DNA of 64,000 nucleotides from Tubulanus polymorphus (lineage: Eukaryota > Animalia > Nemertea). Numbering within the stretch: position 1 is the first letter of the stretch; each line of letters starts with the position of its first letter. A program made the position numbers and the translations under genes. Positions 1,902 to 58,334 of the stretch are shown here, piece by piece. The stretch covers positions 14,198,001 to 14,262,000 of the forward strand of contig NC_134025.1 of NCBI RefSeq assembly GCF_964204645.1, given 5' to 3'. Under the pieces are notes generated by a model. That model did not search any database, had not been told where the DNA came from, and worked only from the letters and a program-made list of their open reading frames with translations.

Positions 1902-1907
1902 AATAAG

Positions 1908-3624: not shown

Positions 3625-3644
3625 CTATTTATATATTTTTCTAT

Positions 3645-3964: not shown

Positions 3965-3968
3965 TTTA

Positions 3969-4904: not shown

Positions 4905-4936
4905 TTATTATATAGATTTTTATTAAAGTTAAAATT

Positions 4937-6184
4937 CTAATACATAATACTGTTTAATTGAGAATTTACAATATTTAATTGCGCGTCAGATATGATATAA
5001 ATGTGCATTTTGAAATTTTTGATTCCTTTATTCTTTGTCATGAATAATTGTATTCCATCTTTAGTGTTCTGTAATTTTTTTCCAGAACCATGTAATGAAT
5101 TATCCTCTGTTGTTCTAAAATCTAACCATAATGCATATTTATTACCGGTATAATAATCAATTTGATTAATGTTACAATTTTCAGATGATTTTACTTTTTC
5201 ATTCATAAAATGTTTTCTAATTTCTGGCCATTAATCAATCATTCTCATTCCTTGACAAAATATTTTATTTGCTATTCCTTCGATAGTTATTTCTACTTTT
5301 GTTATTTCAGGATTATAATAATTATCAACATTTATTGCGCCATTAGTATATGTTGCAATGGTAAAAAATATTAATATACCTTTAATAGATCTTCTTGGGA
5401 AGTTAATATTCTCATTAATAATTTCATCATTTGCATTAATAGTTACAGTTTTAAATTTATCAATATAATCATATAATAATGAAAATCCTTGATTGTATTT
5501 AGTTTGAATTATACTTGAAATATTTTCATCAGTTACTGTATCATATTCTAAACATATATTCGATAATTTATAACTCATATCTTTATTAACGCTAGATATT
5601 ACGATTTCATTTACAGGAGCAAATGTTATTTCGAATATAACGTCTTCTTGAATTGCATATTTATATAAAGGTGCATTATTATTTATCAATTCAAAGTCTA
5701 ATGGAATTTTATATTTGCTTCCATATATACCTTTTATCAATTTATCTACAGCATTAGTTAATATTGCATTATGCGCTTCTGGTCTTAATTTATTTTGGTT
5801 TTCTGATTGGATGCCTTCAAATATCATATTATTTCTATTTTCTTTAGTTAACCATAAATCTTTATAATGCATAAATAAATTATAATCATCTAATGAGAAA
5901 ACTGTTTCTGGACCAATCTTTATTGTTAACTTTTTAATCAAATATCTTCCAACATTATCAACAACATAATTATTATTATTACCGATTACTTTCATATCGG
6001 CTGATAAATAAATACTATTTGGAACATAAAAAGTATTTTGTGTTAATTGAGGGATTCTAACATATAAAGTTTCATCGGGATTAATATTAGAAGGGTTATG
6101 AGTAATTATATGATGTGATCTTTCTGCTTTAATAGCATTAGATATTCTATGATTCTTAGAAGGATTGATATAACTCCCACTCAT
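4937..6184 (-). pseudogene. Major capsid protein (double jelly-roll), disrupted
   Basis: Two ORF pieces match 46648-47897; premature stop and frameshift near 5225-5233; beta-rich motifs LYVRIP, KYKIPLDF, LEYDTV. Confidence 0.8.
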
Positions 6185-6200
6185 TTATTTAACAAAAAAA

Positions 6201-7665
6201 TTATTTATTTTTCATCATGTTTACTAATCCAAAAATAATAGCACTTACAACTGTAATTAAAAATAAAATAATATGTTCAGCAGCAAAGTTAATAATGTTT
6301 CCTGCAGATTTCAATATAAAACCAACAATTGATGCAATAACTCCTGGCAATGCTGCGGCAGATTTTTTAGATAGTTCCGATAAATATTTAGCTAATTTCT
6401 TTAAACCATCCTTAACTTTATCTTGTATAGAATTATTATTATCTGGGGGTTTATCTGGTTTATTGGGAGTAGGAGTAGATTTCAAAGCATTTGATATTGC
6501 TAAATCAATTGTTGTAAATAACATAATTACAGCTGTTAGAATTGAAAGAATTGTTATTCCTTCTAACTTAAATAATAATTTTATTCTATCTTTCAATGAT
6601 ATTTTAGAATCTGGTTTAATCAACAAATCTTTACAAATAACTTTAAATCTATTTATATTATAATCATATGATTTTAACAATAATTTAATTTCTTCTTTTT
6701 GTAATTCTATGTTATATTCTTAATCATCTTTTTCTATTTCTAAATACGCATTTCTTTTTTTAAATTCGATTTCTTCAATAACTTTATTATCTCTATCTAA
6801 TTTTAATTGTTCTATTTCTTTATTTTTATCAGTTAATTCTTTTTCTAAAGTTCTAATTTTTAAATCTCTTATACTTTTATCATGCGCAATTTTATCAACT
6901 TCATTTCTTATATTAATAATTTCTCTTATTGCTTTATCAGAAAGTATATTATTTAAATCTTCTAATTGTTGATCTGTTGCATCAAGTAATCCATTCGGTA
7001 AAAGTTTTTCAATTGGAACTCCTTTTGAATTATGTTTACTAGTTTTGGAAGTTATATTCTGTTCAGAAGTTGTTTCTGTTTCTAAATTATAATCGATTGT
7101 TTCAAATAATTCATTAATTCTTTGTTTAAATACTCTTTCATTTTTAATAATTTCTTCTTGTGTTACATCTTCTATTTCATTACTATTTCTTATTCTTTTA
7201 ATTCTAGATAGGTCTAACTAAAGTTGATTCTGCTAATATTTTGTTTTGTTTTTTATAAGAGATATCAATATAATAATCATCTTTCAAATGATAATAATAT
7301 TCACCATCTAATGATTTTAATTCTCTTACTAAATATCTAGCACCTCTATCATTGATATTATATCCAGATTTTTCAAATATAGGTTTGAAATTATAAACAT
7401 ATTCATTATATTCTAAATTTTGTTTTACTAAATCTGGATTTTCATTTTCAGGATTTATTCTCGATCTAGTTCTTCTATCAATTTCATCTGTTGATGGGCC
7501 TTTAGAACCACTATATGCTAAATTAGAATTATATGCTGATTCATTACCATCATTAATATTAGTTTCATTAAGATTAGCACCTGCATCATTATAATCATCA
7601 TCAATATATCCTTCATTATTATTTCCCATGCCATCCAATGGAATATCTTCTCCACCTTCTGCCAT
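6201..7665 (-). pseudogene. Coiled-coil and multi-hydrophobic-segment protein, fragmented
   Basis: Homologue of 47966-49435, broken near 7210 and 6721. Confidence 0.8.
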
Positions 7666-7680
7666 TTACATAATAAAAAA

Positions 7681-8989
7681 TTAAAATTTAAAATATAATA
7701 TTCCTCCTATAACAATTCCTATACAAGTTAAAGCTAATTTAGTATTTTCATGTGATTTATTATCATCATTTAGTTTAATTATATCATGTTGAATATTATC
7801 AGTTTTTATATTTTCTGATGTATTGTAATCTTTTATTTTAGAATCATTATTTAATTTAATATTCTTAGTTTTAGTTTCAGTTGATTGAATATGTTTTTTA
7901 TTTTTTTCACCTTCCATTAATTTTGGAGCGGTAATAATCGTTTTATTTATATCATTCAATCCAAATGAATTATTTATTGTTGCAGTTTTAATTAGATTAT
8001 TATAACCAATTATATTTCCCATCTTTAATACTAAATCATTAGAAATAATTAATAGATTAGGGCCTATACAATAATTTAATCTAATATGTGATTTATCTAA
8101 ATAATTTTGATATCTTACAATGTTTTCTGGAATCGATCTATTTTTATCATTATGAATTGAATCTTCAAATAATACTTTGAATTGTTTCTGCGCATCGAAT
8201 GAAGTGTTATCATTTCCAATTACTGGGGATCTTGTTTCAACTTGCGCACCTAAAATACATATCAAATAAGTTCTAATAGATTGATTTATTCTTTGTATTC
8301 CGGCTTTAAGTAAAACCTTCACTATTTTCTAAAATGAAATTAACCCAACCATTATTATTATCAATTTTATAATTATGATAAGCTCCAATTCTATGCATAT
8401 AATCAATTCTTTTTATTTCATACTGTTCACCAATACCTTGCAATTTACCATGCGCTCTGAAATCGGAATTAATATTTATACTAAATTCATTACATACTTT
8501 ATAAAACTTAGATAGATTAATATTATTATCCAATTCTTTAAAGTATTTGGATCCGGGCAAAGGACATTCTAATTCATTTAATATTATTCTGATTTGAAAA
8601 TATGTGTGAAATCTAGATATTGTGTGAATTAATTTTAAATCAGAATACTTCAAATTCTTATCTAAGTTATTTAAATGATCATTCCAACTTATTCCACATC
8701 CTGTTGTTGCACGATAAACAGCAAAATCTAATTGGTTCTGCTAATATTTCATATTAGATTTTACTTTATATATATGATATTCATCTCGAGTAAAAGTAAC
8801 TTCATATGTATTAAATATATTTTCCATTTTAGAAATAAAAAACTGTGATTCAGTAACATAAATTTCTAAATTAGTTAATGAATTTAAAACTACATTCCTA
8901 TATGTAATATTTTTCTTAAAATCTATTGCAGGAATATTATATTTAATTGATCTATTATATTGGAAAGCTTTTGGAAAACTATCTACCAT
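7681..8989 (-). pseudogene. C-terminally anchored Polinton protein, fragmented into 3 ORFs
   Basis: Homologue of 49452-50840; W-to-stop at 8741 and a frameshift near 8310. Confidence 0.8.
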
Positions 8990-9005
8990 TTATATAATTA
9001 AAAAA

Positions 9006-9440
9006 TTAATAATTAACTAATTCTTTTAATAATTTATCTTGTTCTTCAACTGTTATATGACCATTTAAACTTATTATATAATCTAGTGTATTCTTCAATT
9101 TATTAATTTCTTTTATATTAGTTTTAATTTTTTCTTTATTACTTTTTATATTTAATTTTGAACTTATACCAGTTAATACACTTGAACTTAATCCTAATAC
9201 ACCAATTGATATAGCTAAAGGTGTTAATGGACTGAATATTGCTAGAAATGTTATTACAGAACTAATTGTAACCGAACTATTTATAATCAAATAATATATA
9301 ATTTTACTTTTTAAATATTTTTTCTTTTTTATCTTTAAGTCACTTTCAAATTCTAATATTTGTTTTTCTAAATATGTTTTTAATTTAGTTTTATTTATAT
9401 CATGAGGAATAATATCAATATTATCAACTTTATCTTCCAT
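9006..9440 (-). CDS. Two-TM small membrane protein
   Basis: Hydrophobic hairpin; homologue of 50857-51285. Confidence 0.75.
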   Translation of the reverse strand: MEDKVDNIDIIPHDINKTKLKTYLEKQILEFESDLKIKKKKYLKSKIIYYLIINSSVTISSVITFLAIFSPLTPLAISIGVLGLSSSVLTGISSKLNIKSNKEKIKTNIKEINKLKNTLDYIISLNGHITVEEQDKLLKELVNY

Positions 9441-9459
9441 TTATTTAGCAAAAAAATTA

Positions 9460-9882
9460 CTAATTAGTAAACTTATAAGCAACAAATATAACAATAACTG
9501 TTCCGCCTAAAATCCATATTATTTCATATTTCTGTTGTTCATTACTTGGGGTATAATAATCTGATATTGTAGGTTTATGTAGATGTAATTTTTCTTTATT
9601 GGTTACCGCGTTATATAAACTCATTGCATCATCAACTGATTGAAAATCTCTATGTGAAATCTTCTGATCATATAATTCTTTATTGATGTAATCCATATAG
9701 TTTTGCCTCTTTTCTCTATATTCTTCTGCTGCTTTATTGTATTTCTCTAATGCTAAGTTATGTCTTTTTTGTTCTGTTATTGATCCATTTTTATCAATAT
9801 GCTTAAATAAATAACCACCACCAGTAAATGCTAAAGCGTTAACAATTGCCGAACCTATAATAGTTATAACTGCAGAAGCCAT
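9460..9882 (-). CDS. Small membrane protein with hydrophobic N- and C-termini
   Basis: Homologue of 51305-51727. Confidence 0.75.
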   Translation of the reverse strand: MASAVITIIGSAIVNALAFTGGGYLFKHIDKNGSITEQKRHNLALEKYNKAAEEYREKRQNYMDYINKELYDQKISHRDFQSVDDAMSLYNAVTNKEKLHLHKPTISDYYTPSNEQQKYEIIWILGGTVIVIFVAYKFTN

Positions 9883-9906
9883 TTATTTAGTAAAATAATT
9901 ATGCAT

Positions 9907-10125
9907 TTATATGGGAGGAATATATTTTTGTTTTTCTAAATAATCAATAGTTAAATTAGATAAAGTAACTGCTAATGTTAATTTTAAAATATCATTGATA
10001 TCATATCTATCAGCATTAACACTTCCCATTTTAAATACTTTTTTTAATACCATTGAATAACCAACAGTTCCAACTGATAGTAATGCGCCTTATAATCCAG
10101 TTATAATCCACTTATTGTCACTCAT
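9907..10125 (-). pseudogene. Small hydrophobic protein, deletion near 5' end
   Basis: Homologue of 51752-51973 with a short deletion near 10090. Confidence 0.65.
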
Positions 10126-10467
10126 TTATTTATCAAAAAAATTACTATCATCAAAATATTTAGTTAACTTATTTATGATTAATTCAACATTTATTTCATT
10201 ACTACTTTTATGATTATCATATATTTTTGTTAATATGTTTTTAATATCATCAATAATTCCATCTTCATTTAATTCATAATATTCTAAAGGTGATTTAATT
10301 AAATCAATTACTTTTTCTATATTATAATTTTCTTTATTAATCATTGATGTATTGTTAAATGATTTACTTTTTATATCAGTAATTACATCATTTAGTTTAA
10401 TTCTCATTTCTTTTCCATGTTTAAAATCAAACCCAAAACATATACTCGGCCCAACAGTTATATTCAT
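10126..10467 (-). CDS. Polinton hypothetical protein (113 aa)
   Basis: Near-identical to 51974-52315. Confidence 0.75.
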   Translation of the reverse strand: MNITVGPSICFGFDFKHGKEMRIKLNDVITDIKSKSFNNTSMINKENYNIEKVIDLIKSPLEYYELNEDGIIDDIKNILTKIYDNHKSSNEINVELIINKLTKYFDDSNFFDK

Positions 10468-10484
10468 TTATATAGTGAAAAAAA

Positions 10485-11265
10485 TTACTCTTTACATCTT
10501 ATAACTAATTCATAAATTACAGGAAAGTTATTCAAATCAATTAAATATCCATTGTGATTTCTAATTTCTAATCTAAAATTATTAAAACGAGGAATGCATG
10601 GTTTGAAATCACACTCTGTTAAATTATAATTTATTTGCGTTCCAAATTCTTTAACATTCTTCAATGGTAAAATATTTAGTAAACCAGAATTACAAGTTAT
10701 ATCTTTAGTTGCTTCGAATGTTTTTGTAGGATCGATTAAATTGCAATAAATATAAAAGTGTGTAAAAGGTATTAAGTTAGGTGTAGCATCAATATTTGTA
10801 AAAGATTTATCTGGAGGAATTCCTAACAGTTTAGCTAGTTTAGACAGTTTTAACAGTTTAGGTTTTTTTTACCATAAATGCATGTTTTTCAATATCAGAC
10901 AACCTTATCTTTATTTTGTCAGAACTCTCACTTTTTAGAAATCTTATATTAAACCCGGAATTATTACCTGACTTGTGCCAGGCTTTTCTGTTAATTTCTT
11001 GTGCTAATGTATCTAAATTATATAACCCCGGTTTTAAATATATATAGGCCCATTCATTTTTATTTTTATTAAAAATTAAAAAAGCTCTATGTTCAATAGT
11101 TTTATCCGATATATCATAAAAAGAATTACATAAACTTATATTTACTAATTTTAAATCTACACAATTCTTGAATTCTCTATCTAATTGTACTAGTAAATTA
11201 TGTGATTTATAATTTGTAAGCCTTCTTGAATCAACAAATATTCTGTATTCTTTTAATTCTACCAT
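10485..11265 (-). pseudogene. Minor capsid protein (penton), frameshifted
   Basis: Homologue of 52332-53090; micro-duplications (acagttt repeats) at ~10825-10860 break the frame. Confidence 0.8.
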
Positions 11266-11282
11266 TTATTTTACATATTTTC

Positions 11283-11634
11283 TTATTCGAAATCTATTTC
11301 ATGATGCCCTTTTTCATTATTACCTTTGTATACGAAATAGAAATCTCCAGAACATAATTCTTCTAGATCTTCACTTGATAATCTATGAAATCTATCTGGT
11401 AAATATGTTCTGAATTTATATGTATTTCCTTTTAATCCTTCATATTCTAAGTGTATAACTAATTTATCTCCATAGTTATTAGTGACTGTATCAATTTGTA
11501 ATTAGATAGTTCTTATGAATTGTTAATTCTGTTAACTTTTTGAATTTATAATCTACAGATTTTACATTTGTTATATCTTTAATTCTATCTAGAAATAATT
11601 TGTTGTTCTCACTGTGTGCTTGTTTACTCTCCAT
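11283..11634 (-). pseudogene. Small beta-rich protein, frameshifted
   Basis: Homologue of 53108-53449. Confidence 0.7.
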
Positions 11635-11663
11635 TTATAATACATATTTTTATTAAAATTTGA

Positions 11664-14279
11664 TTAACACGTTAGAATTCTTTTCATTATCTCGTTCTCT
11701 TTTGTTTCTTCTCTTTTAAATTTTAAGTATTCATCTAAATTACAACCATAAGCAACTGTATGAATTCCATCATCTAAAATATATCTTTTATCATCAAATG
11801 GGTTTAGACTTATCTTTTCAATTTCTTCAATAAAAATTTCATGATCTTCAGATCTTAAACATCTCATCTTATGTTTTCTAACTTCTTCACTGAATATACA
11901 ATTGATGTAATCTTTGAAATGAATATTCTTTTCTACTACACTTTTAGTTATTCCTTTTAACTTTTTAGCTTCATGTTCTTTAGTTTTATATGAATACATT
12001 TTAGATCTAATACCGATGAATTCAATCATTTCTTCACCACCTAATTCATCTTTGAATTCACCGGGAACTTTTTTTTTATCATTGCTAAACAATTCATGAT
12101 CTTTAGGATAATTACTGAAATCAAAATGATGTTTTAATATTTTTAAATCATCAGTTATGTTATTAGTTTTTATCTTTAATATGTAACTGTCAGTATCAAA
12201 ATATAATATTTCTATATGTGTTTCTCCAAAAAGTGGTTGTAATACATAATAATAAAATTCATACATTAGTAATTTTGATAATTCTAAAACTGATGCTCCA
12301 ACATAGATTGGTTTGTTAAATTTCATGTTGTTCTTCTCATTTTAACTGCGGCTAAATTTTCATCAAATATTCTGTTACCAATGAACTTAGGATATGTTTG
12401 TAAATGCCTTATCCTTTTACCATTACTAACTAACTCAATATCATTTCTATTTCTAATATTTTCACAAGTCTTACCATAGAATGCATTATTCATTAACTTG
12501 AAGAAATCTTTTTCGAAATCAGTTTTAGCTTCAGTTCTCTGTTTGGTGTTAAAATCTATATATTTTTCTAACCACTTAGATTGACTAAATGAAATATATC
12601 TATGTACTTTTTTTAGAACCATTCCTTGATTCAAATAAAACTTTAACATTCTATAATGTACTACATAATTAGATTTATCTTCTTGAGTTACCATTAACTT
12701 TTCTGTATGAATAAGATTTTCGGGTTTAATTCTTTTTTGGTAATTTGATAATTCTTCATGAGTTACAGTTTTATGTTCTGGACAGTATGCTAGATTTCTA
12801 GATTTAAATTTAATATGTTCAGGATATTCTAAATCTACAACAAAGAAGTAACCAGTATCTGAATCATCTGCAATATCTAGAATTCTTTTCTTCCAATCAA
12901 ATTTATCATTATTTTCATTCTGTAAAACTTCAGTTAATTCAAATACTCCATAAGGTTGTGGTTCCATCATTGCCCAACCATACAAATTATTTGCATCTAT
13001 ATATAATAACTTATATCCAGGGTTATCATTTACATTGAAATATCTATCACCTAATACACCTGAAACTCCTCCTCTTATAGATTTTTCAAATAATAGTAAT
13101 TGATCTATATTTGTTAACAAATCCATTTTTATATCTGTAAATTTTAATCCACAATCCCATGTTAAACCTGGTGATGAATAACAATGACAAGGATCAATGT
13201 TAAAATATTTTAGTTTAACATCTCTAAACCTTTCGAATATATCGGTTAATAATAATACATCTGATTTTAAATATAAATCTACTAATTGCCCATGATTTTC
13301 TATTTTGAAATGATTCCAAATATTCAATGTTCTATTATATACTTCATCTTTAACATATTCATTTTTTAATTCATCATAGAATTGTTCTTTTAATAATTCA
13401 GTTATGTTAAAATCATTATGTTTTTTATAGAAAGAATATGGAATTGCGCCTTATTATCTCATTAATTGGAAATCATCATTATTTGGGTAGTGTTGCTTTA
13501 ATATTTTCAATTCATCATCAACTAATGATTTTGATAAGTTATCTAATGAACTATTTAAAAATCTATATGAATCTATAAATCTTAGGCAACCAAATTGGAA
13601 TGATATATAATTCTCAGATGTTTTAGCTAACATTCTTAATTTATAAGTTGGTATTTTATCTTTTGATCTATTTGAATTTAATCTTTCTATTTCATTATTA
13701 ATTTCTTCTATTTTATGGCATAACTGTTTGATGAATAAATGTGCATCATATCCTGATAGATTATGAAATATAACTGGTACAAAGTTAATTTTCTTAGCTT
13801 GTAAGTTACAATTCTCATGCGCGGCGCCTCTAAGCTTTCCGTTCAAATGATCATGGTCTCTTACTTTTTTATCTTTATAATTAAATATCTTTTCACAATA
13901 ATAACATTTATCTGCAAACGCAAATTCTTCTTTATCTTCTTCTGTCATTATAATTTCTATATTTGTATTCAATAATTTACTAAATCTTATTTCATATTCA
14001 ATTAATAAGTCACAAAAATGATTGATAACATTTTCATTTCTATAATGATAATATTCACTTTCAATTAGCTCTGGATAATCAGATTTAATATATAACCCGA
14101 AAGCAGCAGCTGATTGATGAATCTTTTTAATAGTATTTGTTTTTGGTGGTTCATCTGAATAATCATTTTCATTAGAATTTAGTTTCTTTCTTTTATAATA
14201 TATTTCTTTTCTATCTTGATCAGTTAATTCTTTATTTAATGATTCAAAATCTCCATATATAACAAATGGTACTTTATTT
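11664..14279 (-). pseudogene. Type-B DNA polymerase, fragmented and 5'-truncated
   Basis: YIDANNLYG, KLMNNAFYGK and YFDTDS motifs spread over three ORFs; N-terminal third missing. Confidence 0.93.
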
Positions 14280-38846: not shown

Positions 38847-39007
38847 GAATGAACTGAGCTCTGAATCTGATGAAAATATTAAATCTGAGATCTTACGAAT
38901 GATGTTATTTTAGCCCTCTACTTCTGAAAACTGAATAGCGCGCTGTGAACTTCAACTTCAAAACAAATTTGTTGAACAGCAGTGTATCGAAAAACTGTAC
39001 GTACAGT

Positions 39008-39582
39008 AGTAATAGGGGTAATGGGCTTTCAGGCCAAAGGTCGAACGGTCGAGCCCATTAAAAAACAAAATATTAAAAGTAATTAAAAAACTATAATATA
39101 TTTTCATAACCGCGTGCATTTTATATCAAAACTAAATATTTATTCTAAGATATCAATAATATAAAAAGCATATTGTATTAAATCAATTAGTCGCTCCACT
39201 TCGCTACCGCTCCGCTCCGCGACTAATTGATTTAATTACAATACACAAATTCAAATAATCAAATATATTCAAATGATAATAATTATTCTATTATTCAACT
39301 GAAATGCACGCGGTTATGAAAATATATTATAGTTTTTTAATTACTTTTAATATATGTTATTAATGAACTCGATCATTAAACCTTTAGCTTGAAAGCCCAT
39401 TACCCCTATTACTCTTAAAATATTCACATAAATGAATAACATTTAAATCATTGAACTTCTAAAATCAATTTTAATAAAAAATATAGTATTAAAATGGAAG
39501 CAAATAAGTACTACTGCCCAACATGTAATATCGATATAGATAAATCCCAAAAAGCAAGACACAATAAAACTAAAACACATTT
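39008..39582 (+). repeat. Left TIR (575 bp); outer 406 nt is a fold-back palindrome
   Basis: Reverse complement of 57421-57995; one mismatch seen near the inner end. Confidence 0.95.
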
Positions 39583-39667
39583 GTTTTTAGTCCAGTTGGT
39601 TAAAGCAAAGACATTTATCGAATTAAGGAACTCAACATATAGTGAAAAATATGTTGAATCGTTATAA
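39494..39667 (+). CDS. 57-aa chimeric mini-ORF: PolB N-terminal zinc finger fused to an HNH-protein-like tail
   Basis: MEANKYYCPTCNIDIDKSQKARHNKTKTHL-FLVQLVKAKTFIELRNSTYSEKYVESL*; too short for the ORF track. Confidence 0.45.
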   Translation: MEANKYYCPTCNIDIDKSQKARHNKTKTHLFLVQLVKAKTFIELRNSTYSEKYVESL

Positions 39668-39989
39668 ACGCCTGATAATACTCAGCTATATAGTTGGTTG
39701 TATTAGCTCTAGTAAACATATGTTACCAGCTTATATTTCAATTGTAAAGAGTTAATTAATTTCATTGATCTAAATGCCTTTATTATTGATTTTTTTTTCA
39801 ACTTCAACGCGTTGTGTATACGGCGAACGTAGCAAATCACAAATCTCATAATCTACAAGTCTCAACACGCTTGTTCTAGATGTTTATACTAGAAAATGAT
39901 TCTATTTTAACCTATATACATTCAATGTACAGAGCCATAGAATAAATCTATAAATTCGCAGCTGTTACAGTTGTTACTATAACAACGAG

Positions 39990-40105
39990 ATATTATGACT
40001 CATAATATTACAAACTGTGCTGGAATATTCTAGAAAGGCGCGCCGGAACTAGATGATGTGGCATAATCAACAACGTGTCATTCTAGAAATCGCCCCGGAA
40101 ATGGA
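39990..40105 (+). promoter_or_regulatory. Cluster of AP-1, heat-shock element and ETS-like motifs
   Basis: ATGACTCAT (39995-40003), GAAtaTTCtaGAA (40023-40035), TTCtaGAA (40081-40088), two CCGGAA. Confidence 0.5.
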
Positions 40106-40407
40106 TATACGCTGTAATATTGTGCTCAGGATATTCTATCTTTCGAAACGAAATTAGGAGTTTATAGTTTACAATTATAAATCTAAATGTAAGTACTGTT
40201 TTTTGTAGTTATTGGGGCTATTAAATATGAAACCTTTAAGTGCTTTTGACAACTACAACTTCATACAGTTAATTCTATTTTACGTTAGATAGTTAATAAC
40301 TTGAACTATAATAAGTTATAATAATTAGAAACGATAGACTTGAAAATATTTATATCATATAATATCGCGGTTCCTGTTCTACCGCTGATATCTTTTAGTT
40401 GAATAAA

Positions 40408-41178
40408 ATGTCGTGTGTATCAAGAAGTACTCTTGATTCTCAGAGGACAACCGAAATAGAAGATGAACCAACCGAAATGGAAGATGAACCAACCGAAATG
40501 GAAGATGAACCAACCGAAATGGAAGATGAACCAACCGAAATGGGTGCTGAAGTAAAAGAATCTTTCGATATAGAAGATGAAACGTTAGAAGAAGTTAAAA
40601 AACATTTATATTACCATCAAGAAATGACATTAATTTTAGAAAAAATTATAGAAAACCAGCAATCAAGCGTAACATCATTACCAAAAAAGCCAACAACCAA
40701 TGTAGAAATATTGCTAAGACTAAAAGGAACAAAAATTAAAAAGAAAATGAGTGGAAATGAGTTAAATAAGTTTTTTAAATCAAAATTATCAAATGAAAAA
40801 GATGTAAGTTTTAAAGAAATAGAAGGTATAACATCATTTAATGAAATAACTGTTTTATTGAAAAAAAATTATAGAACCTTGTTATTCAAAAAAGCAAAGC
40901 ATTTATGGGATTATATCATTTTCGGGGATTGTTTAAATAGGGGATTTTTAATGTTTAATAAACAAACTGCGGGGATTCCTTGGGCTTCTTGGGTTAAAAA
41001 ATATATAGGTATCAGTGTTGGGCATGAAAGAAAATTAAGGAGCGTAGGTAGATTAATTACATATAAAAGATTCAAATTATTAAGTTTGTCATTTAGTGAA
41101 GTAATCAGATATATGCCAGAAATTGAAAAAATGCTTGTCAATGATCCAGAAATTGAAAAGTTCTGGTTGGAATTATAA
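40408..41178 (+). CDS. Putative HTH DNA-binding regulator with acidic EMEDEPT repeats
   Basis: ATG at 40408 after an acceptor-like ttttag; 21-nt tandem repeats; W..WV...IGIS...ERKLR helix-turn-helix-like pattern. Confidence 0.6.
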   Translation: MSCVSRSTLDSQRTTEIEDEPTEMEDEPTEMEDEPTEMEDEPTEMGAEVKESFDIEDETLEEVKKHLYYHQEMTLILEKIIENQQSSVTSLPKKPTTNVEILLRLKGTKIKKKMSGNELNKFFKSKLSNEKDVSFKEIEGITSFNEITVLLKKNYRTLLFKKAKHLWDYIIFGDCLNRGFLMFNKQTAGIPWASWVKKYIGISVGHERKLRSVGRLITYKRFKLLSLSFSEVIRYMPEIEKMLVNDPEIEKFWLEL

Positions 41179-41240
41179 ATCAAATTATGTACAACGACTG
41201 AACAACTTGTATAATGTATTGTGTAAATCTGTTTGGTGAA

Positions 41241-41481
41241 TTTTTATGTTCGGTCGTTTCTATTTCTAGAATGAATATATAATTATGATTAGCGCATGCG
41301 CATTGATCAAAAGCGCGCACGAATGCGCGGTTTGCTCAGTTGTATGATTTTGATATTTTCTGTGTTCGGTTGTTTCTATTTTACAGATTTACATAATGAA
41401 TATATAATTATGATTAACGCATGCGCATTAAGCAAAAGCGCGCATTCATGCGCGCTTTGCCCAGTGGTATTATTTAGATAT
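41241..41481 (+). repeat. Diverged ~120-bp tandem duplication with (G)CGCATGCGCA motifs upstream of the HNH gene
   Basis: tgttcggt.gtttctattt...aatgaatatataattatgatta.cgcatgcgcatt...aaaagcgcgca occurs twice. Confidence 0.75.
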
Positions 41482-41601
41482 CAAGGAATCGAAACTGACT
41501 TATCAAAAGCAGCGAGGAATGAAAAAGGATGACGTTAGTCGGAGAAATGGAAGAGGATTCTAAAATTATTAACCAATTTAGTAAAAAAATACGTATAATA
41601 A

Positions 41602-42264
41602 ATGGAACCAGAACAACCACAAACTATCAATATTACAAATAACACTGGCGTTATAAACATATATTACAAGAAGTGTTCTAAATGTGAATTAAATAAATCA
41701 TTAACAGAATTTAGTAAGCGTAAGATTAGCAAAGATGGTTTTCAATATTACTGTAAAACTTGCATTAAACTATATACCAAACAATATCGAGAAGATAATA
41801 GAGAATCTTATAATGATTATATGACAGAATATATGAGAGAAAGATATCAAACAGATCTTAATTTTAGATTAAAACAATGTTTACGGTCTAGATTAACACA
41901 ATTATTCAACAAAGAAACACATTCAGAAACATTAACTAATTTGTTGGGTTGTTCAGATGAATTTCTCAAATCATGGATAATATTTCAATTCGATGATAAA
42001 ATGAATATAGATAATTATGGGGATTATTACCACATTGATCACGTGTTACCAATATCTAAATTTAACATGGACGATGAATACAATAAAAAACTTATTTGGA
42101 ATTGGAAAAATTTAAGACCTTTAGAAAAGAAAGAAAATCAAATCAAATCTAATAAAATAGATTTACAGTTATATTTGAATCAACTGGAAAAAGTAAAAAA
42201 ATTTATTGAATTATGGAATTCAACACATAATGAACAATACGTTGAGTCTTTAATGAGTGGTTAA
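41602..42264 (+). CDS. HNH endonuclease with zinc ribbon (giant-virus-like)
   Basis: KKCSKC...YYCKTC; YHIDHVLPISKF...NLRPLEKKENQIKSNK. Confidence 0.82.
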   Translation: MEPEQPQTINITNNTGVINIYYKKCSKCELNKSLTEFSKRKISKDGFQYYCKTCIKLYTKQYREDNRESYNDYMTEYMRERYQTDLNFRLKQCLRSRLTQLFNKETHSETLTNLLGCSDEFLKSWIIFQFDDKMNIDNYGDYYHIDHVLPISKFNMDDEYNKKLIWNWKNLRPLEKKENQIKSNKIDLQLYLNQLEKVKKFIELWNSTHNEQYVESLMSG

Positions 42265-42512
42265 AAAATGATAGATTTTAAATAAAAAGTATTTAAAAAA
42301 CAATAACTTCAACTAGCTATCGAATTCTATTATATTTTTAATATTTTCTTTTCAAAAAGAGAATACTTTATATTTTGAATAGATCCGAATAGAAATTCTT
42401 TAAATTCAAATAGCTAGTATCAGTAGTCAATACTAGAATTCTTTAACTTTAACTAGCTAGTATCATTTTATAATACTTATAATACTATTCTTATTAAATT
42501 TCTCTAATATAA

Positions 42513-43115
42513 ATGTCAAAGAAATCTAATAAGAATAGTATTGATATTGAAAAAACATTAGATGATTTAGGTATTAGTGATAATAAGGATACAGTTGTTT
42601 CTAATTCTATTCAAGTTAATAACAATATAGATTATGAATACTACTTATATTGTAAGCATCATCTAGAACTATTGATTGCGAGTGGAAAAACTAAAGAGTT
42701 TATTGGTAAAACAATAACTTTTCAAGAATTAGATAATATGAATAAAGAAAAAGTAATAAAATATTTTAAGATTTATGAAGAGTCAAGATTAGCTAGAATA
42801 AATGATTCTATTTCAGATGGTATTGTCAAATGTTATTCTAAGTTATGTAACCAGTTAATACCAATTGATGATGAAAATAAATTATATAGTGATTTGAAAA
42901 ATGACTATTTAGTTATGACTGAATTACAAAAATGGGTTGGTTATGCTTCATTTCAATTAGGATCGGTTATGACATTAATTTCTACTGGTGTCATAACATT
43001 TTCGAACATCAAACCTATGGAATATAAATCAGGTAAGAACGAAACAGATGTACTACAACCAAACGTCGAAACAGAAGATGAATCAGAACAAAAATTAACT
43101 AAAATAAATGAGTGA
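42513..43115 (+). CDS. Polinton conserved hypothetical protein
   Basis: Intact and conserved in both copies. Confidence 0.8.
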   Translation: MSKKSNKNSIDIEKTLDDLGISDNKDTVVSNSIQVNNNIDYEYYLYCKHHLELLIASGKTKEFIGKTITFQELDNMNKEKVIKYFKIYEESRLARINDSISDGIVKCYSKLCNQLIPIDDENKLYSDLKNDYLVMTELQKWVGYASFQLGSVMTLISTGVITFSNIKPMEYKSGKNETDVLQPNVETEDESEQKLTKINE

Positions 43116-43482
43116 TGGAGTTAAGAAAAAGGCTAGATCCGAGAAACAAATTAAATGGGCAAGAGAATTAGGTAAAAGATCTTCGGAATTAAAAAAAGCT
43201 AAGAAAAAGAAATTAACTGATATAAATGAATCTGATATTAATTCAAATAATAATCCATCTGATTCTTCTAATGTTGGAAGTAATTATAAATTATATATTA
43301 CAATTGGATTAGTAACAGTTATTATATTATCCGGTGTAATATATAAATCAAAATTCAAATCTGACGATAAAGATGATTCCAATGATGATCGGAAACTTAG
43401 TTATCCGTTTACAGACAATAAACCTATCATACCAGAAAATAAATCAAATGAAACTAAATCTAAATTATTATTAATGGATTAA
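43108..43482 (+). CDS. Small basic single-TM protein
   Basis: Lys-rich N-terminus; TM segment LYITIGLVTVIILSGVIY. Confidence 0.75.
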   Translation: MSDGVKKKARSEKQIKWARELGKRSSELKKAKKKKLTDINESDINSNNNPSDSSNVGSNYKLYITIGLVTVIILSGVIYKSKFKSDDKDDSNDDRKLSYPFTDNKPIIPENKSNETKSKLLLMD

Positions 43483-43488
43483 AATAAG

Positions 43489-44574
43489 ATGAAAAAAGAA
43501 CAATATTTAAGAGCGTTATATTATAACCCAGAAAGTGAAGTTTCATATTCAAGTGTTTCGGAATTATGGGATAAAATTAAATCTGATAAAGAAAAAATAA
43601 AATATAGTGAATTAAAATCATGGTTACAAAATCAACCAACATATCAAATTCATAAAAAGATGGATAAAAAATATTTAACAAGAAAAGTAATGGTTTCATA
43701 TATTGATCAACAATGGCAAGCTGATTTAATTGATATGAAAAACTTAGAAGAATATAACAAAGGATATTTCTGGATATTAAATGTTATAGATATATTCAGT
43801 AGATACGCATGGAGTATCCCGATTAAAAATAAAACTGGTATAGAAGTTACAAATTCTTTCAAATTAATATTTAAAGAAGCTATCCCAGATAAAATACAAT
43901 TTGATGAAGGTAAAGAATTTTATAACAAACATTTCAAAAAACTATTAACTGATAACGATGTAGAATATTTTTCAACACATTCAGATAAAAAAGCATCTGT
44001 TATAGAAAGATTTAATAAAACGTTGAAAACTAGAATGTGGAAATATTTTACTGCTAATGAAACATACAAATATATCGATGTGTTAGATGATTTAGTTAAA
44101 GGTTATAATAATTCTAAACATAGTTCTATAAATATGAAACCTATACAAGCTAGAAAAGAAGAAAATTCAGAAATAGTTTGGAATAATTTATATGGAGCGT
44201 TTGTTACACATGATTTCGGTGAACCTAAATTTAAAATAGGACAACATGTTAGAATTTCTAAATATAGAAAAACATTTTATAAAGGTTATACCCCTAATTT
44301 TACAGAAGAAATATTTAAAATTAAAAAGATAATATTAACTAAACCATTTGTTTATAAATTGTTTGATTTAAAAGATGAAGAAATATTAGGTTATTTTTAT
44401 GAACAAGAATTATCATTAGTACCAAATCCAGATGAAATAGAATACAAAATAGAAAAGGTATTGAAAACAAAAACTCTTAAAGGAAAAAAGTATTCTTTGG
44501 TGAAATATAAAGGATATGATGATAAATTTAATGAATGGATTTTATCTAGTAAAATTAAAAGAATAAATGAATAA
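43489..44574 (+). CDS. Retroviral-like (rve) integrase with chromodomain, intact DDE
   Basis: WQADLIDM / IQFDEGKEF / IERFNKTLK; chromodomain ...LVKYKGYDDKFNEWI; consistent with the 6-bp TSD. Confidence 0.95.
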   Translation: MKKEQYLRALYYNPESEVSYSSVSELWDKIKSDKEKIKYSELKSWLQNQPTYQIHKKMDKKYLTRKVMVSYIDQQWQADLIDMKNLEEYNKGYFWILNVIDIFSRYAWSIPIKNKTGIEVTNSFKLIFKEAIPDKIQFDEGKEFYNKHFKKLLTDNDVEYFSTHSDKKASVIERFNKTLKTRMWKYFTANETYKYIDVLDDLVKGYNNSKHSSINMKPIQARKEENSEIVWNNLYGAFVTHDFGEPKFKIGQHVRISKYRKTFYKGYTPNFTEEIFKIKKIILTKPFVYKLFDLKDEEILGYFYEQELSLVPNPDEIEYKIEKVLKTKTLKGKKYSLVKYKGYDDKFNEWILSSKIKRINE

Positions 44575-45178
44575 AGATTTATTTATATTTGAACCACATA
44601 ATATGTTAGTTACTGGAGTTACAAATTGTGGTAAAACATATTTCATATTAGACTTGTTAGAAACTATTTATAAAAATCATTTTGATAATATAATATTATT
44701 CTGTCCTACATATGAAATGAATAAAACATATAATAGAGATATAGTTAAGATAAAAAAGTTTATTATATTAGACCCTAAAACAGTAGAAGAAAATTTAGAT
44801 AATTGTATAAAAATTGCATTAGATATTTATAAAGGATCAAATACATTATTTATTATTGATGATTGCGCAAATTTACATGATTCTAAAATTAGAGAAAGCG
44901 AGTTATGTTATTTAGCTTTCTCTGGTAGACATTTTGGGATAACAACATGGGTTTTAAATCAGAAATATAATTCAATTGTTAAAGACTTTAGGGAGAATAT
45001 AAGATTTCTAGTTTTATTCTACAACAAAGATAGAAAATCTATGCAACAATCATTAGAAGAAAATCAAATTATACCTACTGAATTACACGATGAATATATG
45101 AATAAATTAAAAAATAATAAAGGTTCAAAATTATTAATGAGATTACAATTTCCATATGAATATAAATTTATAAAATAA
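44567..45178 (+). CDS. A32/FtsK-like packaging ATPase
   Basis: GVTNCGKT, FIIDDC, GRHFGI...Q. Confidence 0.94.
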   Translation: MNKDLFIFEPHNMLVTGVTNCGKTYFILDLLETIYKNHFDNIILFCPTYEMNKTYNRDIVKIKKFIILDPKTVEENLDNCIKIALDIYKGSNTLFIIDDCANLHDSKIRESELCYLAFSGRHFGITTWVLNQKYNSIVKDFRENIRFLVLFYNKDRKSMQQSLEENQIIPTELHDEYMNKLKNNKGSKLLMRLQFPYEYKFIK

Positions 45179-45194
45179 AATCCTAATTCAAAAT

Positions 45195-45561
45195 ATTATA
45201 GAATTCACTGTATACTAATGGATGAGTGGATGAATTGGATGAATTGGATGAGTGGATGAATGGATGAGTGTAATAATATATATATTTTACTTTTTAACAC
45301 ATAAATTAGAAGAATAGTATGAGTATAAATATAATATTTATATTCTTTATTAAATTTAACACAATATATATATTATTAAAATAATATTTAAATATAGTAT
45401 AAAATTGATAAAATAACTTCAAATCAAACTCTTACTGTTTAAAAAATAAAAAACATATGTAAATTATATATTATTACACTCTTCCACTCTTCCACTCTTC
45501 CAACTCATCCAACTCATCCAACTCATCCATTCATCCATCAATATACAGTGAATTCTATAAT
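45195..45561. repeat. 367-bp inverted-repeat structure with TGGATGA(A/G)T tandem arrays at the convergent gene junction
   Basis: attatagaattcactgtata...(tggatga)n...gtgtaataatata is mirrored by tatattattacac...(tcatcca)n...tatacagtgaattctataat. Confidence 0.85.
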
Positions 45562-45571
45562 CTTTTTAATT

Positions 45572-46615
45572 TTAATTTTCATATTTTTCTTTAAGCTTAT
45601 TGTATTCTAAATATATATCCCTTTGCATTTTCTTTGGTATAATTCCTAAATAATTCTCGAGTTTATATTTATTGAATGTTTTTCTTGAAAATATTTTTGG
45701 AATATAATTTTCGATTTCAGTTTTAGATGGATGTTTATTTAAAAATTCTCTAAAATCATCATATTTAAGTTCAAATAAGTTCATTGCATAAGTTACATTT
45801 GGTTTAAAGTTATCTAACTTTTTCAATATGGTAACTTTATCATTACTCAAGAAATAATCTATAAATGTTTTTCTATACCACCGATAATCTAATATATTCT
45901 TTTTATTAAATTTTGGATTTATAACTGTTGGATTTTCTATTACATTATCTGTACCAATATGTTTAATTGAGTATTTATGATTCAATTGTTTATCATATAT
46001 TACATATTCTTTACATTTTTCACACCAAGATTTAAATACTTGTATTGCATGGGCTGAATCATTTCCACCTTTTGTTTTTAATTTATAATGTTTTGCCCAA
46101 TTAGCCTTTGTTATACATTCATTACAGAAGGCACAATAATTCTGATCCTCTTTGCATTTCTCTTTATATATATTGGCATATGTTTTTACTAATTGTAAAA
46201 TATGTTCATCTTTTTTGATGTGTAATAAATAATCATTATAATTATCAAAATCTTCTTCACAATACATACATCTGATGTTATCTTTTGGTTGAACATTTAA
46301 TTTTTCTATTTTAGGTTCAATATTATATTCTATTTTTGTTTCAATCTTATCATCATTCGATGTAGAAGGTATAACATTATCTTCTATTTTAGATTCAATA
46401 TTATCTTCTATTTTAGATTCAATATTATCTTCTATTTTATATTCAATATTATCTTCTATTTTTGTTTCAATATTCTTATCTATTTTACTTATTCTATATT
46501 TGAATTGATTAAAGTAATCTCCAAAATACTTACTGTATTCATCATAAGGTAATATATAATATATATCTGATATCATTTCACTTGGAGATTGTATTTCATA
46601 TATTCCACCTTCCAT
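45572..46615 (-). CDS. Variable-slot protein with EDNIESKI repeats and zinc fingers
   Basis: CMYCEE...HIKKDEH and YCAFCNE...H motifs; 24-nt repeats. Confidence 0.75.
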   Translation of the reverse strand: MEGGIYEIQSPSEMISDIYYILPYDEYSKYFGDYFNQFKYRISKIDKNIETKIEDNIEYKIEDNIESKIEDNIESKIEDNVIPSTSNDDKIETKIEYNIEPKIEKLNVQPKDNIRCMYCEEDFDNYNDYLLHIKKDEHILQLVKTYANIYKEKCKEDQNYCAFCNECITKANWAKHYKLKTKGGNDSAHAIQVFKSWCEKCKEYVIYDKQLNHKYSIKHIGTDNVIENPTVINPKFNKKNILDYRWYRKTFIDYFLSNDKVTILKKLDNFKPNVTYAMNLFELKYDDFREFLNKHPSKTEIENYIPKIFSRKTFNKYKLENYLGIIPKKMQRDIYLEYNKLKEKYEN

Positions 46616-46647
46616 TTATTATATATATTTTTATTAAAGTTAAAATT

Positions 46648-56400: not shown

Positions 56401-57509
56401 AATTTAATTAAATCAAATATATTTATTTTAAGATTATTATCTCTTTCTATTTTTGGAATATTTTTAATTCTAACAGGATACTTATCTATCTTATAATTAT
56501 TTTCAAATTGTTTATAATGAGTTAATCTATAAGTATGTTTATTATAATCTTCAACTGGATGTAAACAACTTATTATAACCCATAGAAAACATTTATCATC
56601 TTCATTTTGTACATTTATTACAGCATTAGTTTTAAATGGTAGTTTAATATAACTTGATGCTTCAATATCTGGTTCTTTATAATATGATAAATTATTTTCA
56701 TCAATTGGTTTTGATTTAGTTAACTTATTATATTTTGTGTTATAAACATGTAAAGTTATAAATATTATCTCATCAAATATTAAACCAGATCCTTCAAAAT
56801 ATTTCTCTTCTATTTTAGTTTTTATTTCATTATAACATTTATCTAATTTATCATCTATATGTTGTTTAGAAATAATATGTTGTGAATGAGAATTTATATT
56901 ATATATTGGTTTATCTTCAGATTTTATAAACTTTACTTTAGAAGATATACTTATTTTAGGATATTCAACATCTGTAATTATTTTTATTATTTCTTTCATA
57001 TTTTCTAAATGTTTTTTATTTTCTTCTAATGTTTTACCTTTATGAAATTTAAACTCGATAGCTGCTGGACCAATATCACTTTTAAATGCTTCGGTTATCT
57101 CTATATCTTTTTTATTATCTAATGAATTAATATAATTTCTTACATCTTCCATGTATGGTCTTTTATTGTTTAATTTATTTTTTATGCTTTTAATTGTCTT
57201 CTGTTTCTTATCGTTATCATTATCAAAATAATCTTCACCTAAAATATCATTATTCTCATTTCTTATATGACTTATAGTTTTTAAATGTTCTTTATAATAT
57301 CTTTTATCACTGAATGATTGATTACATGTATCACATTTGTATGTTTCTTTTTCATCCTTTAATTCTTCTAATTTATTTTCTAATATATCATCTTTATACT
57401 CTAGTTTCAATTTATTCTCTAAATGTGTTCTAGTTTTATTGTGTCTTGCTTTTTGGGATTTATCTATATCGATATTACATGTTGGGCAGTAGTACTTATT
57501 TGCTTCCAT
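53478..57509 (-). CDS. Polinton type-B DNA polymerase (zinc fingers, OTU-like region, exonuclease with endonuclease VII-like insert)
   Basis: Intact 1343 aa; IYGDFE, HNLSGYD, YIDANNLYG, KLMNNAFYGK, YFDTDS; CYYC...RDHDHLNGKFRGAAHENCN. Confidence 0.96.
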   Translation of the reverse strand: MEANKYYCPTCNIDIDKSQKARHNKTRTHLENKLKLEYKDDILENKLEELKDEKETYKCDTCNQSFSDKRYYKEHLKTISHIRNENNDILGEDYFDNDNDKKQKTIKSIKNKLNNKRPYMEDVRNYINSLDNKKDIEITEAFKSDIGPAAIEFKFHKGKTLEENKKHLENMKEIIKIITDVEYPKISISSKVKFIKSEDKPIYNINSHSQHIISKQHIDDKLDKCYNEIKTKIEEKYFEGSGLIFDEIIFITLHVYNTKYNKLTKSKPIDENNLSYYKEPDIEASSYIKLPFKTNAVINVQNEDDKCFLWVIISCLHPVEDYNKHTYRLTHYKQFENNYKIDKYPVRIKNIPKIERDNNLKINIFDLIKLPNTKGNNIKHYTLEPLYLSKDYDSNDVIDILYYENHYMWIKQIDLFFKSENDHHKIYLCRKCLHRFSNESTLLNHKQLCDNHDYCKLVLPNEKDKILEFKKYDYKNKVPFVIYGDFESLNKELTDKDRKDIYYKRKKLNSNESDYSDEPPITNTIKKIHQSAAAFGLYIKSDYPELIESEYYNYRNENVINHFCDLLIEYEIRFSKLLNTNKEIIMTEEDKEVFAFTDKCYYCEKIFNYKDKKVRDHDHLNGKFRGAAHENCNLQAKKINFVPVIFHNLSGYDAHLFIKQLCHKIEEINNEIEILNSNRSKDKIPTYKFRMLAKTSENYISFQFGCLRFIDSYRFLNSSLDNLSKSLVDDELKILKEYYPNNDDFQLMRYKGAIPYSFYKNHNDFNITELLKEQFYDELKNEYVKDEVYNRTLNIWNHFKITNHGQLVDLYLKSDVLLLTDIFERFRDVNLKYFNIDPCHCYSSPGLTWDCGLKFTDIKMDLLTNIDQLLLFEKSIRGGVSGVLGDRYFNVNDNPGYKLLYIDANNLYGWAMMEPQPYGMFEITEVLQIDKFDWKKRILDIADDSDTGYFFVVDLEYPENIKFKSRNLAYCPEHKTVKHEELSNYQKRIKPDNHIHTEKLMVTQEDKYNYVVHYRMLKFYLNQGMILKKVHRYISFSQSKWLEKYIDFNTTQRTKSKTDFEKDFFKLMNNAFYGKTCENIRNRNDIELVSNGKRIRHLQSYPKFIGNRIFDENLAAVKMKRTSMKFNKPIYVGAAVLEISKFLMYKFYYNILQPHFGEKHIEILYFDTDSYILKIKTDNITDDLKTLKHHFDFSNYPKDHELFSNDNKKVPGKFKDELGGEEMIEFIGIRSKMYSYKTKEHEAKKLKGITKSVVEKNIHFKDYINCIFNEEVRKHKMKCLRSEDHEMYIEEIEKISLNPFDDKRYILDDGIHTVAYGCNLDEYIKFKREETKENEIMKRILAC

Positions 57510-57995
57510 TTTAATACTATATTTTTTATTAAAATTGATTTTAGAAGTTCAATGATTTAAATGTTATTCATTTATGTGAATATTTTAAGAGTAATAGGGG
57601 TAATGGGCTTTCAAGCTAAAGGTTTAATGATCGAGTTCATTAATAACATATATTAAAAGTAATTAAAAAACTATAATATATTTTCATAACCGCGTGCATT
57701 TCAGTTGAATAATAGAATAATTATTATCATTTGAATATATTTGATTATTTGAATTTGTGTATTGTAATTAAATCAATTAGTCGCGGAGCGGAGCGGTAGC
57801 GAAGTGGAGCGACTAATTGATTTAATACAATATGCTTTTTATATTATTGATATCTTAGAATAAATATTTAGTTTTGATATAAAATGCACGCGGTTATGAA
57901 AATATATTATAGTTTTTTAATTACTTTTAATATTTTGTTTTTTAATGGGCTCGACCGTTCGACCTTTGGCCTGAAAGCCCATTACCCCTATTACT
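57421..57995 (-). repeat. Right TIR (575 bp), containing the PolB start; outer 406 nt is a fold-back palindrome
   Basis: Reverse complement of 39008-39582. Confidence 0.95.
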
Positions 57996-58334
57996 TACAG
58001 TGCACTGCGAACTGAACGCGGCGTCTTCTCACTTAGAAAATTATCGACTTGACAGATTAGTTCGATTTTCGACCGCAGCGGCGCTATACGACATTTGAAA
58101 CTTTCTACCTTTTGCATTCACCACAGCAGACCCGTGTGTCCACGTTTGTTTACTTCTTCTGCGCATGCGCTGTGAGGAGATTATGCTGGGGCAGAAAGAA
58201 AACAACGCTCTCCCTGATATTCTCGGAGCTACCCCATTCTCCCGGTCTTTAACTTACCCAAACCTGCTAACCGGCTATCGTTCAAGAGTCGCTGTGTATT
58301 TTGCTAGGCCAAAGCTAGATTTTAACTAATAAAA

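Follow-up and report, generated by a model that had tools for sequence, protein, structure and literature searches.

How Polintons leave the chromosome and how their ends are copied is, in the literature consulted, so far described by models, without demonstration. The 64-kb stretch of Tubulanus polymorphus DNA analyzed here (the window) bears on this question, as each end of the Polinton that it contains (39008-57995; 18,988 bp) opens with a 406-nt palindrome able to fold back on itself. Is this palindrome kept, on which strand would it fold, and what might it do for the element?

The 575-bp terminal inverted repeats (TIRs) of the element differ by a single mismatch (offset 566), end in AG...CT (more fully, AGT...ACT) and are flanked by a 6-bp target-site duplication (TSD); the uninserted flank was recovered in contigs of X2 and X3, which represent a single sample (Table 1). 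Together with a protein-primed family B DNA polymerase (pPolB), a retroviral-type integrase (rve) and a packaging ATPase, these features identify a Polinton/Maverick, with the same pPolB, rve, ATPase, TIRs, 6-bp TSD and AGT...ACT ends as the Beta adintovirus-like elements in the available text of PMC8097293. The polymerase (PolB) is 37% identical to a named adintovirus PolB (P0113) and is not matched by PF03175 in Pfam, which fits the Beta class as given in the accessible portion of PMC8502044. A Pfam scan of 16 open reading frames (ORFs) returned no protease family that could represent a maturation protease. For the probable capsid protein, the corresponding ORF of a sibling Polinton gives a weak Capsid_N match (E 0.0045). 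The possible single-stranded-DNA-binding protein of 113 aa has as its nearest named atlas cluster (score 0.84) one with Phi29 SSB in 44% of its members, and has no match in PDB or PHROG.

Several features of the locus are recorded here in their own right. The probable major capsid gene of the window copy is split despite the near-identical TIRs, through either mutation or assembly error. The sibling (1-14279) is a decayed Polinton in which many ORFs are broken, although identity is still about 88-92%; it stops inside PolB and has no terminus inside the window. The first 29 PolB codons are duplicated in the left TIR (39494-39582), with unrelated sequence thereafter, and a close relative (L025) starts inside these same codons and differs in gene order, with its PolB immediately preceding the HNH gene. 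The Polinton itself sits in another multi-copy repeat (38848-39007 and 57996 onward), with a flank depth in the hundreds.

Table 1. Features of the Polinton and its termini, in window coordinates.
Feature	Position	Strand	Remarks
Left TSD, 6 bp	39002..39007	+	TACAGT; empty site in X2/X3 contigs
Left TIR, 575 bp	39008..39582	+	406-nt fold-back + 169 nt (PolB upstream region, first 29 PolB codons)
Left terminal fold-back, 406 nt	39008..39413	-	Minus strand carries free 3' end and folds better
Hairpin tip	39195..39218	-	GCGNAGC/GCGNNAGC-type mini-hairpin run on 3'-end strand
HNH / endonuclease VII-family nuclease, stand-alone, 220 aa	41602..42264	+	phrog_1035 E 1.9e-19; HNH_4 E 0.011
Retroviral-type integrase with chromodomain	43489..44574	+	rve E 8e-9
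A32-like packaging ATPase	44567..45178	+	Pox_A32 E 3.6e-11
Major capsid protein, probable, split in two ORFs	46648..47897	-	47649-47897 + 46648-47583
113-aa ORF beside PolB, possibly ssDNA-binding protein	53108..53449	-	Lead only
Protein-primed family B DNA polymerase (PolB), 1343 aa, Beta-like	53478..57509	-	Family + relatives search
Endonuclease VII-like insertion of PolB, residues 587-635	55605..55751	-	PF02945 E 5.7e-5
Predicted vOTU protease domain of PolB, about residues 289-414	56268..56645	-	Cys307, His406 present
Predicted terminal-protein (TP) domain of PolB, about residues 136-256	56742..57104	-	Ser241 in Gly-Ser-Gly loop, last helix/last strand
Right TIR	57421..57995	-	Partner of left TIR
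Right terminal fold-back	57590..57995	+	Plus strand carries free 3' end, pairing flush with 57590
Right TSD, 6 bp	57996..58001	+	TACAGT

The initial annotation described three stems, a loop, a mirrored copy at 57590-57995 and a terminal sequence present four times, all of which were confirmed when the sequence was checked. The outermost stem is perfect (39008-39031 with 39390-39413; 24 bp), the second spans 52 bp (39070-39121 with 39302-39353), and the innermost (39171-39194 with 39219-39243) has one bulge and closes a 24-nt loop; the sequence of 39008-39413 reappears at 57590-57995 in exact reverse complement, and an 11-nt terminal motif recurs at 39008, 39403 (minus strand), 57590 and 57985 (minus strand). 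Folding of the palindrome as DNA, a check proposed in that annotation for the TIR, yielded -114.4 kcal/mol compared to -29.4 +/- 4.0 for shuffled sequence (z -21; 0/100 shuffles as good), far beyond chance. The last base of the 3' end is paired, flush, with offset 406 as part of the perfect 24-bp stem. In a cruciform of the palindrome the junction would, by geometry, coincide precisely with 39007/39008 and 39413/39414. Neither the terminal 24-mer nor the tip motif has an exact match in viral_contigs, and a single-protein PolB scan of the same collection found no relative.

Were the palindrome a one-off duplication, it should be absent from sister copies. These were studied at the left end of the element, at 85% likeness, via contigs and via the reads of X5 (1,934 Mb, or about 12% of the run). 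X5 is a different sample that carries the same species label, and all read evidence from it concerns integrated copies. Mean read depth over the hairpin body is 1,399, and single deletion joints are covered by only 4-16 reads, from which we infer that at least about 100 genomic copies were sampled. Among the best 40 of 64 variants, 33 lie inside the hairpin, i.e., 18 at stem positions paired in the window copy, 8 at its mismatches and 7 in loops. Fourteen of the 18 stem variants form seven complementary pairs and four have no partner change among the variants listed, such that 7/10 listed variants in the left arm and 7/8 in the right are matched; at the window mismatches, 7/8 listed variants restore a pair. 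Matching of 7/10 in the left arm was reached in 0/100,000 permutations, a procedure that ignores relatedness among copies. X5 reads can land on the wrong arm of the hairpin; however, the paired changes at 39189/39224 (99%/98% of reads) and 39113/39310 (71%/72%) exceed the frequencies that such misplacement yields and are thus not artefacts of it. Both partner homopolymer runs also show a 1-nt deletion, and changes in the terminus are accompanied by changes in its internal copy (39018/39403 and 39023/39398). As variants are matched across the arms, the paired homopolymer deletion included, the arms evolve jointly, via selection, arm-to-arm copying, or both. The palindrome is thus present in sister copies, is kept paired there by complementary changes, and is not a one-off duplication.

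Internally deleted forms of the hairpin are rare, at 4-16 reads per joint against a depth of about 1,400. The X5 reads also contain rare copies without the hairpin interior, as well as (within 39008-39450) at least two further subfamilies with the same outer end, which diverge after 39064, before 39379 or after 39448, with about 460-580 reads at each point, or near 39027, with 263 reads. Two strand-switch joints within the hairpin, both rare (7 and 4 reads), could reflect either inner inversions or chimeras from library preparation.

Inverted (flip/flop) isomers of the hairpin interior had been predicted for an end of this type. Three signs of flop ends were sought in X5, these being random flank behind 39413, left-type letters beside the interior, and a joint of 39414 to 39008. 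Random flank adjoins 39007/39008 in 2,390 reads, and no loose end behind 39413 occurs among the six best-supported ends (the sixth at 263 reads). No 39414-39008 joint, which would mark a dimer junction or a flop end, is among the 15 of 21 joints listed, from a run that may lack the replicating element. At least two of four diagnostic left-arm sites fall below 8%, since just two C>T variants at 8% or more lie outside those listed. Both ends of the window element have the same hairpin form. A single orientation therefore dominates the integrated X5 copies and the two isomers are nowhere near equal in amount; a minority flop form is possible, as the test rests on 150-nt reads, a blunt instrument here. 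Neither free genomes nor a pile-up of molecule ends was seen in reads or contigs, the read libraries being uninformative on blocked ends.

The two strands of the fold-back are not equivalent. Four mismatches of the window copy (offsets 28, 35, 39 and 47) have no variant among those listed, and as the variant tables are seemingly ranked by share, with 21% the lowest listed, the majority of reads retain these mismatches. On the 5'-end strand each of the four is C·A, which makes it G·T on the strand whose 3' end is free. Over the whole window hairpin the 3'-end strand folds to -118.6 versus -114.4 for its complement; for the outer stem alone, the 5'-end strand of this copy is slightly better (-42.0 versus -40.5). 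At the tip, four overlapping mini-hairpin motifs of the GCGNAGC/GCGNNAGC type (one of them G·T-closed) lie on the 3'-end strand and none on the opposite strand, with a single match of this motif class on both strands of the 18.2 kb between the hairpins; a variant at 39198, in 35% of reads, completes the fourth. Only GNA triloops give these very stable DNA mini-hairpins in the available text of PMC13037366, from whose table the GGTA tetraloop is absent. The 3'-end strand, a predicted one outside the window, also folds better in all four elements with a fold-back (-42.2 versus -33.3 in L108, -30.4 versus -25.6 in L028 and -22.1 versus -19.2 in L045, in addition to the window), for which the coin-toss chance is 1 in 16. 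The persistent G·T mismatches and the GCGNAGC tip likely favour folding of the free-3'-end strand. Strand-biased mutation, e.g., deamination of one strand, could be an alternative source of the one-sided G·T.

These other elements came from a screen of 168 loci with a related PolB, most of which have no recognisable element end. Among 10,086 anchored AGTA...TACT pairs, seven score at least 13, and at three loci the terminal motifs stand at both ends of a fold-back beside PolB, i.e., L108 (129 nt; z -10/-12), L028 (137 nt; z -4.5/-6.1) and L045 (72 nt). Their putative ends were called from the AGTAG...CTACT motif and the position beside PolB. None of 101,757 shuffled control pairs scored 16 or more, and in another run 1 of 42,600 scored 17.5; the identification of L028 (16.5) and L045 (18.5) thus rests also on position, motif and folding. 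Both element ends were found at 0/168 loci (one, L135, has a far inverted repeat), and the L108 record holds no second fold-back copy. With shorter, flush fold-backs beside PolB at 3/168 loci, the palindrome does recur in other Polintons. It is also dispensable in relatives, as five candidate ends recognized by motif only (L113, L090, L035, L106 and L057) have no flush fold-back.

On a PolB tree of 141 sequences (the others being duplicates or without the core region), L028 falls with the window PolB in a five-member clade (SH-aLRT 96), and L108 and L045 are placed outside it. The fold-backs are scattered over this tree (three changes; 391/500 shuffles as low). The longest stretch shared between L028 and the window hairpin is a 10-nt tip motif, matched in 8/5,000 shuffles in a post hoc comparison.

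Other palindromes from the screen were set aside, those at L112, L114, L116, L128, L129, L136, L008 and L057 lacking flush alignment to a terminal motif or resembling host repeats, and the matches at L125 being microsatellite, which was filtered. The L032 contig begins (1-90) with a GC-rich hairpin, just upstream of PolB, that resembles the sequence lying about 15 nt inward of the candidate L113 end and may be a subterminal, non-flush variant. In a relative from the window clade, 43-bp inverted arms surround one 140-aa gene (L050:4996-5507). Many bacterial and archaeal MAGs also include contigs with a Polinton-type PolB (L105-L168), probably as eukaryotic or viral contamination.

The polymerase itself bears on what the fold-back might do. 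PolB residues 100-420, modelled with 93 sequences (pLDDT 82), form a region of four strands and two helices, with Ser241 in a loop ahead of the last strand, followed by an OTU domain. The former matches the little finger of Y-family polymerases (4IR1; Z 8.0, rmsd 2.7, 94 aligned) and the latter a viral OTU (3PHU; Z 7.2, rmsd 3.8, 101 aligned), with no match of the segment rising above a middling Z-score of 8.3; viral structure matches of the same segment are PolBs labelled adintovirus, MELD virus and densovirus. Matches of both kinds are likewise given for the TP and vOTU domains of PolB in PMC11071308 (available text, sections 7 and 9), where the TP domain is defined by a linking Ser/Tyr between alpha2 and beta4 (section 7). 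Ser241 is conserved in 92/93 aligned sequences, Cys307 in 93/93 and His406 in 92/93, and the PolBs of L108, L028 and L045 also retain the Gly-Ser-Gly and Cys motifs. Structure prediction thus provides the TP linking Ser and the vOTU Cys/His expected of a protein-primed replicon, and PolB appears to retain the predicted TP and vOTU domains used in protein priming. No HUH Rep/NS1 nickase was detected in a Pfam scan of 16 of the 19 ORFs of at least 80 aa, 10 of these 16 having no family at E 0.01. The initial annotation had proposed the endonuclease VII-like domain of PolB as a hairpin nickase; as this domain is widespread in related PolBs (PF02945 on many of them), its presence does not point to hairpin nicking.

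We tentatively favour, at somewhat under an even chance, a reading in which the fold-back is a local panhandle on the free-3'-end strand, rebuilding the terminal origin for protein priming. Protein-primed initiation at one duplex end would displace a full strand, the 3' 406 nt of which would snap back to form a duplex equivalent to the terminal origin (exact over 24 bp and largely so over about 115 bp); this local duplex would substitute at short range for the 19-kb panhandle between the two TIRs. TP-PolB would start on the folded 3' end and displace through the hairpin, thereby keeping its orientation without a nick, and the integrase would then insert the open duplex with its 6-bp TSD. In addition, the folded structure would protect the 3' end and serve as a template for end repair, which on this proposal would help the arms to stay alike. 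The local panhandle is favoured because it would account for the flush palindrome, the joint evolution of the arms, the structure of the 3' strand, the single orientation and the retained TP. Against it, the paired 3'-OH could be extended by any polymerase, as seen for the Streptomyces fold-back 3' end, which is extended as a primer in vitro with Mn2+ (PMC4513846, accessible text), and 575-bp TIRs by themselves already permit an ordinary panhandle. The fold-back is conserved, is probably functional on single-stranded 3' ends, and probably assists rather than replaces the predicted protein primer.

Of the competing accounts, the one with most to recommend it is self-priming, in which the folded 3' end is itself extended as the DNA primer, for second-strand synthesis on an excised or displaced strand, and the resulting closed duplex or dimer is resolved asymmetrically, keeping one orientation, with TP serving open ends only. 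We consider this unlikely, though well worth weighing. The flush 24-bp 3' pairing would allow it, as the initial annotation had supposed; strand-biased stability and the mini-hairpin tip fit it, and the conserved near-end mismatches could mark the arm to be cut. In autonomous parvoviruses, resolution of the left-end junction keeps one orientation. PMC3431310 (text in part) names junction resolution for that end of these viruses, and the self-priming model has been put forward for 52-nt palindromes of protist virophages and a Polinton-like virus (PLV) in the available text of bioRxiv 10.64898/2026.07.28.741278. Self-priming with orientation-keeping resolution retains some weight because the Streptomyces fold-back end, too, can be extended as a primer. 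It sits less well with the intact predicted TP and vOTU domains, the failure to find an HUH/Rep nickase in 16 ORFs (many without a family) and the lack of a 39414-to-39008 joint among the 15 of 21 listed. A hybrid end, doubtful in our estimate, would combine protein priming at open ends with self-priming from the flush 3' fold-back in a lineage of animal Polintons, and the endonuclease VII domain that the element encodes would cut at the base of the cruciform or flap to give precise excision of the provirus; were this true, the hybrid end would supply the missing step of Polinton excision and represent a living intermediate between terminal-protein ends and poxvirus-like hairpin telomeres. A role as a cap or recognition signal only (3' exonuclease protection, packaging or integrase loading), with none in initiation, seems quite unlikely. 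Mini-hairpins are exonuclease-resistant and bind SSB poorly (PMC13037366, available text), mismatches in the vaccinia hairpin serve packaging (PMC8956199, text in part) and the element encodes a packaging ATPase; yet a cap needs no inner arm that ends exactly at the terminus or tracks it, and both hold in four unrelated elements.

A telomere of the poxvirus kind would arise if a cruciform at the element end were cut by an endonuclease VII-type domain, leaving closed hairpin ends and excising the provirus as well. The junction would fall exactly at the boundaries of the palindrome, and two predicted endonuclease VII-family domains are encoded, one also being present in the L108 PolB. We nonetheless hold this to be improbable, as symmetric cutting gives equal flip and flop in vaccinia (PMC8956199, accessible part) and here one form is seen, with any flop signal below the display cut-offs; the insertion is common in related PolBs, fold-back known or not, and the integrase would require closed ends to be reopened. 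More improbable still is a functionless by-product, with template switching at linear ends repeatedly making fold-backs and repair copying arm onto arm. The homopolymer deletions in both arms do look like copying, the scatter on the PolB tree and a second, unrelated 403-nt fold-back within the same element are as expected, and accidental annealing is raised as an alternative in bioRxiv 10.64898/2026.07.28.741278 (available text). Long palindromes are deletion-prone, however, yet deleted forms are rare here; the tip motif is shared with L028 by arms that have nothing longer in common, and the strand bias recurs across elements. Lastly, the 406-bp unit, which has terminal motifs at both ends, could be an independent mini-element (MITE) capping the Polinton and also mobile alone. 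This can be practically set aside, as mean depth over the hairpin body (1,399) is lower than over the inner TIR (1,845), i.e., solo copies are not in excess (a few are possible), and random flank was found before 39008 and not behind 39413 among the six best-supported ends.

Known systems offer partial likenesses. Parvovirus hairpins (AAV ITR, left end of autonomous viruses) share the flush 3' fold-back, the structured tip and the mismatched bubbles. The AAV ITR shows a balance of flip and flop; in the window Polinton no such balance is seen, no Rep/NS1 was found, and the gene set is that of a dsDNA virus plus an integrase. Poxvirus telomeres likewise carry a long, AT-rich, incompletely paired palindrome at each inverted-repeat end, but vaccinia ends are covalently closed, equal in flip and flop, and made by the A22 resolvase (PMC8956199, text in part), whereas here one form dominates and a predicted terminal-protein domain is kept. 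The terminal fold-back is thus not shown to be a telomere of the poxvirus or AAV type. In adenovirus and PRD1, the displaced strand regains a duplex origin by inverted-repeat pairing, followed by protein priming, although this panhandle idea for displaced strands is still treated as unproven where it is discussed (PMC11886824, available text); there both genome ends pair, whereas the inverted copy 406 nt inward would allow the window Polinton to pair locally. Typical Streptomyces telomeres combine a 5' terminal protein with a 3' palindrome that folds onto its inner complement and forms sheared-G:A hairpins, but differ in the internal bidirectional origin, the end patching by Tap/Tpg and the shortness of the palindromes (PMC4513846, accessible text); this likeness is one of architecture, a working analogy with no homology claimed.

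The closest precedent is found in protists, where palindromes beside TSDs occur in Halocafeteria seosinensis virophages (subtypes 1, 2, 5 and 6) and a PLV (subtype 4). These resemble the window Polinton in having a palindrome in the TIR adjoining the TSD and an rve integrase, with a hairpin-priming model proposed, but are short (52 nt in subtype 5) and mostly accompany replicases other than pPolB, as identified by a screen for loops of at most 10 nt and at most four mismatches (bioRxiv 10.64898/2026.07.28.741278, available text); the fold-back described here is 406 nt long, imperfect, and from an animal element whose pPolB has predicted TP and vOTU domains, and thus runs counter to that trend. 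The same text, so far as available, contains no covariation, strand-bias or flip/flop tests. "Hairpin" and "palindrome" have no match in the accessible vertebrate (PMC8097293, main text) and nematode (10.1101/2023.08.22.554363) surveys, nor "hairpin" in that of PMC8502044. Palindromic ends of animal Polintons are not reported in the available portions of these three, of PMC11296320, of 10.64898/2026.10.13.758929 or of 10.1101/2022.07.28.501842, though supplements, Kapitonov and Jurka 2006, or Repbase may mention them. Short terminal palindromes and hairpin priming were therefore already known from the 2026 preprint, and what is new is a long one in an animal Polinton with pPolB. As short-read assemblies often stop at such repeats, fold-back ends may be under-counted. 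A conserved, strand-specific 3' fold-back beside a predicted TP domain also provides a short, defined substrate for distinguishing in vitro between protein priming, self-priming and cutting of the junction.

The second fold-back of the element (45177-45579; 403 nt, z -12.9) is unrelated to the terminal one and lies between the convergent ATPase and 347-aa genes. At the matching place, the sibling (3620-3975) has a weaker fold made of different repeats (z -4.6). This internal structure is possibly a two-way terminator or a fold-back hotspot.
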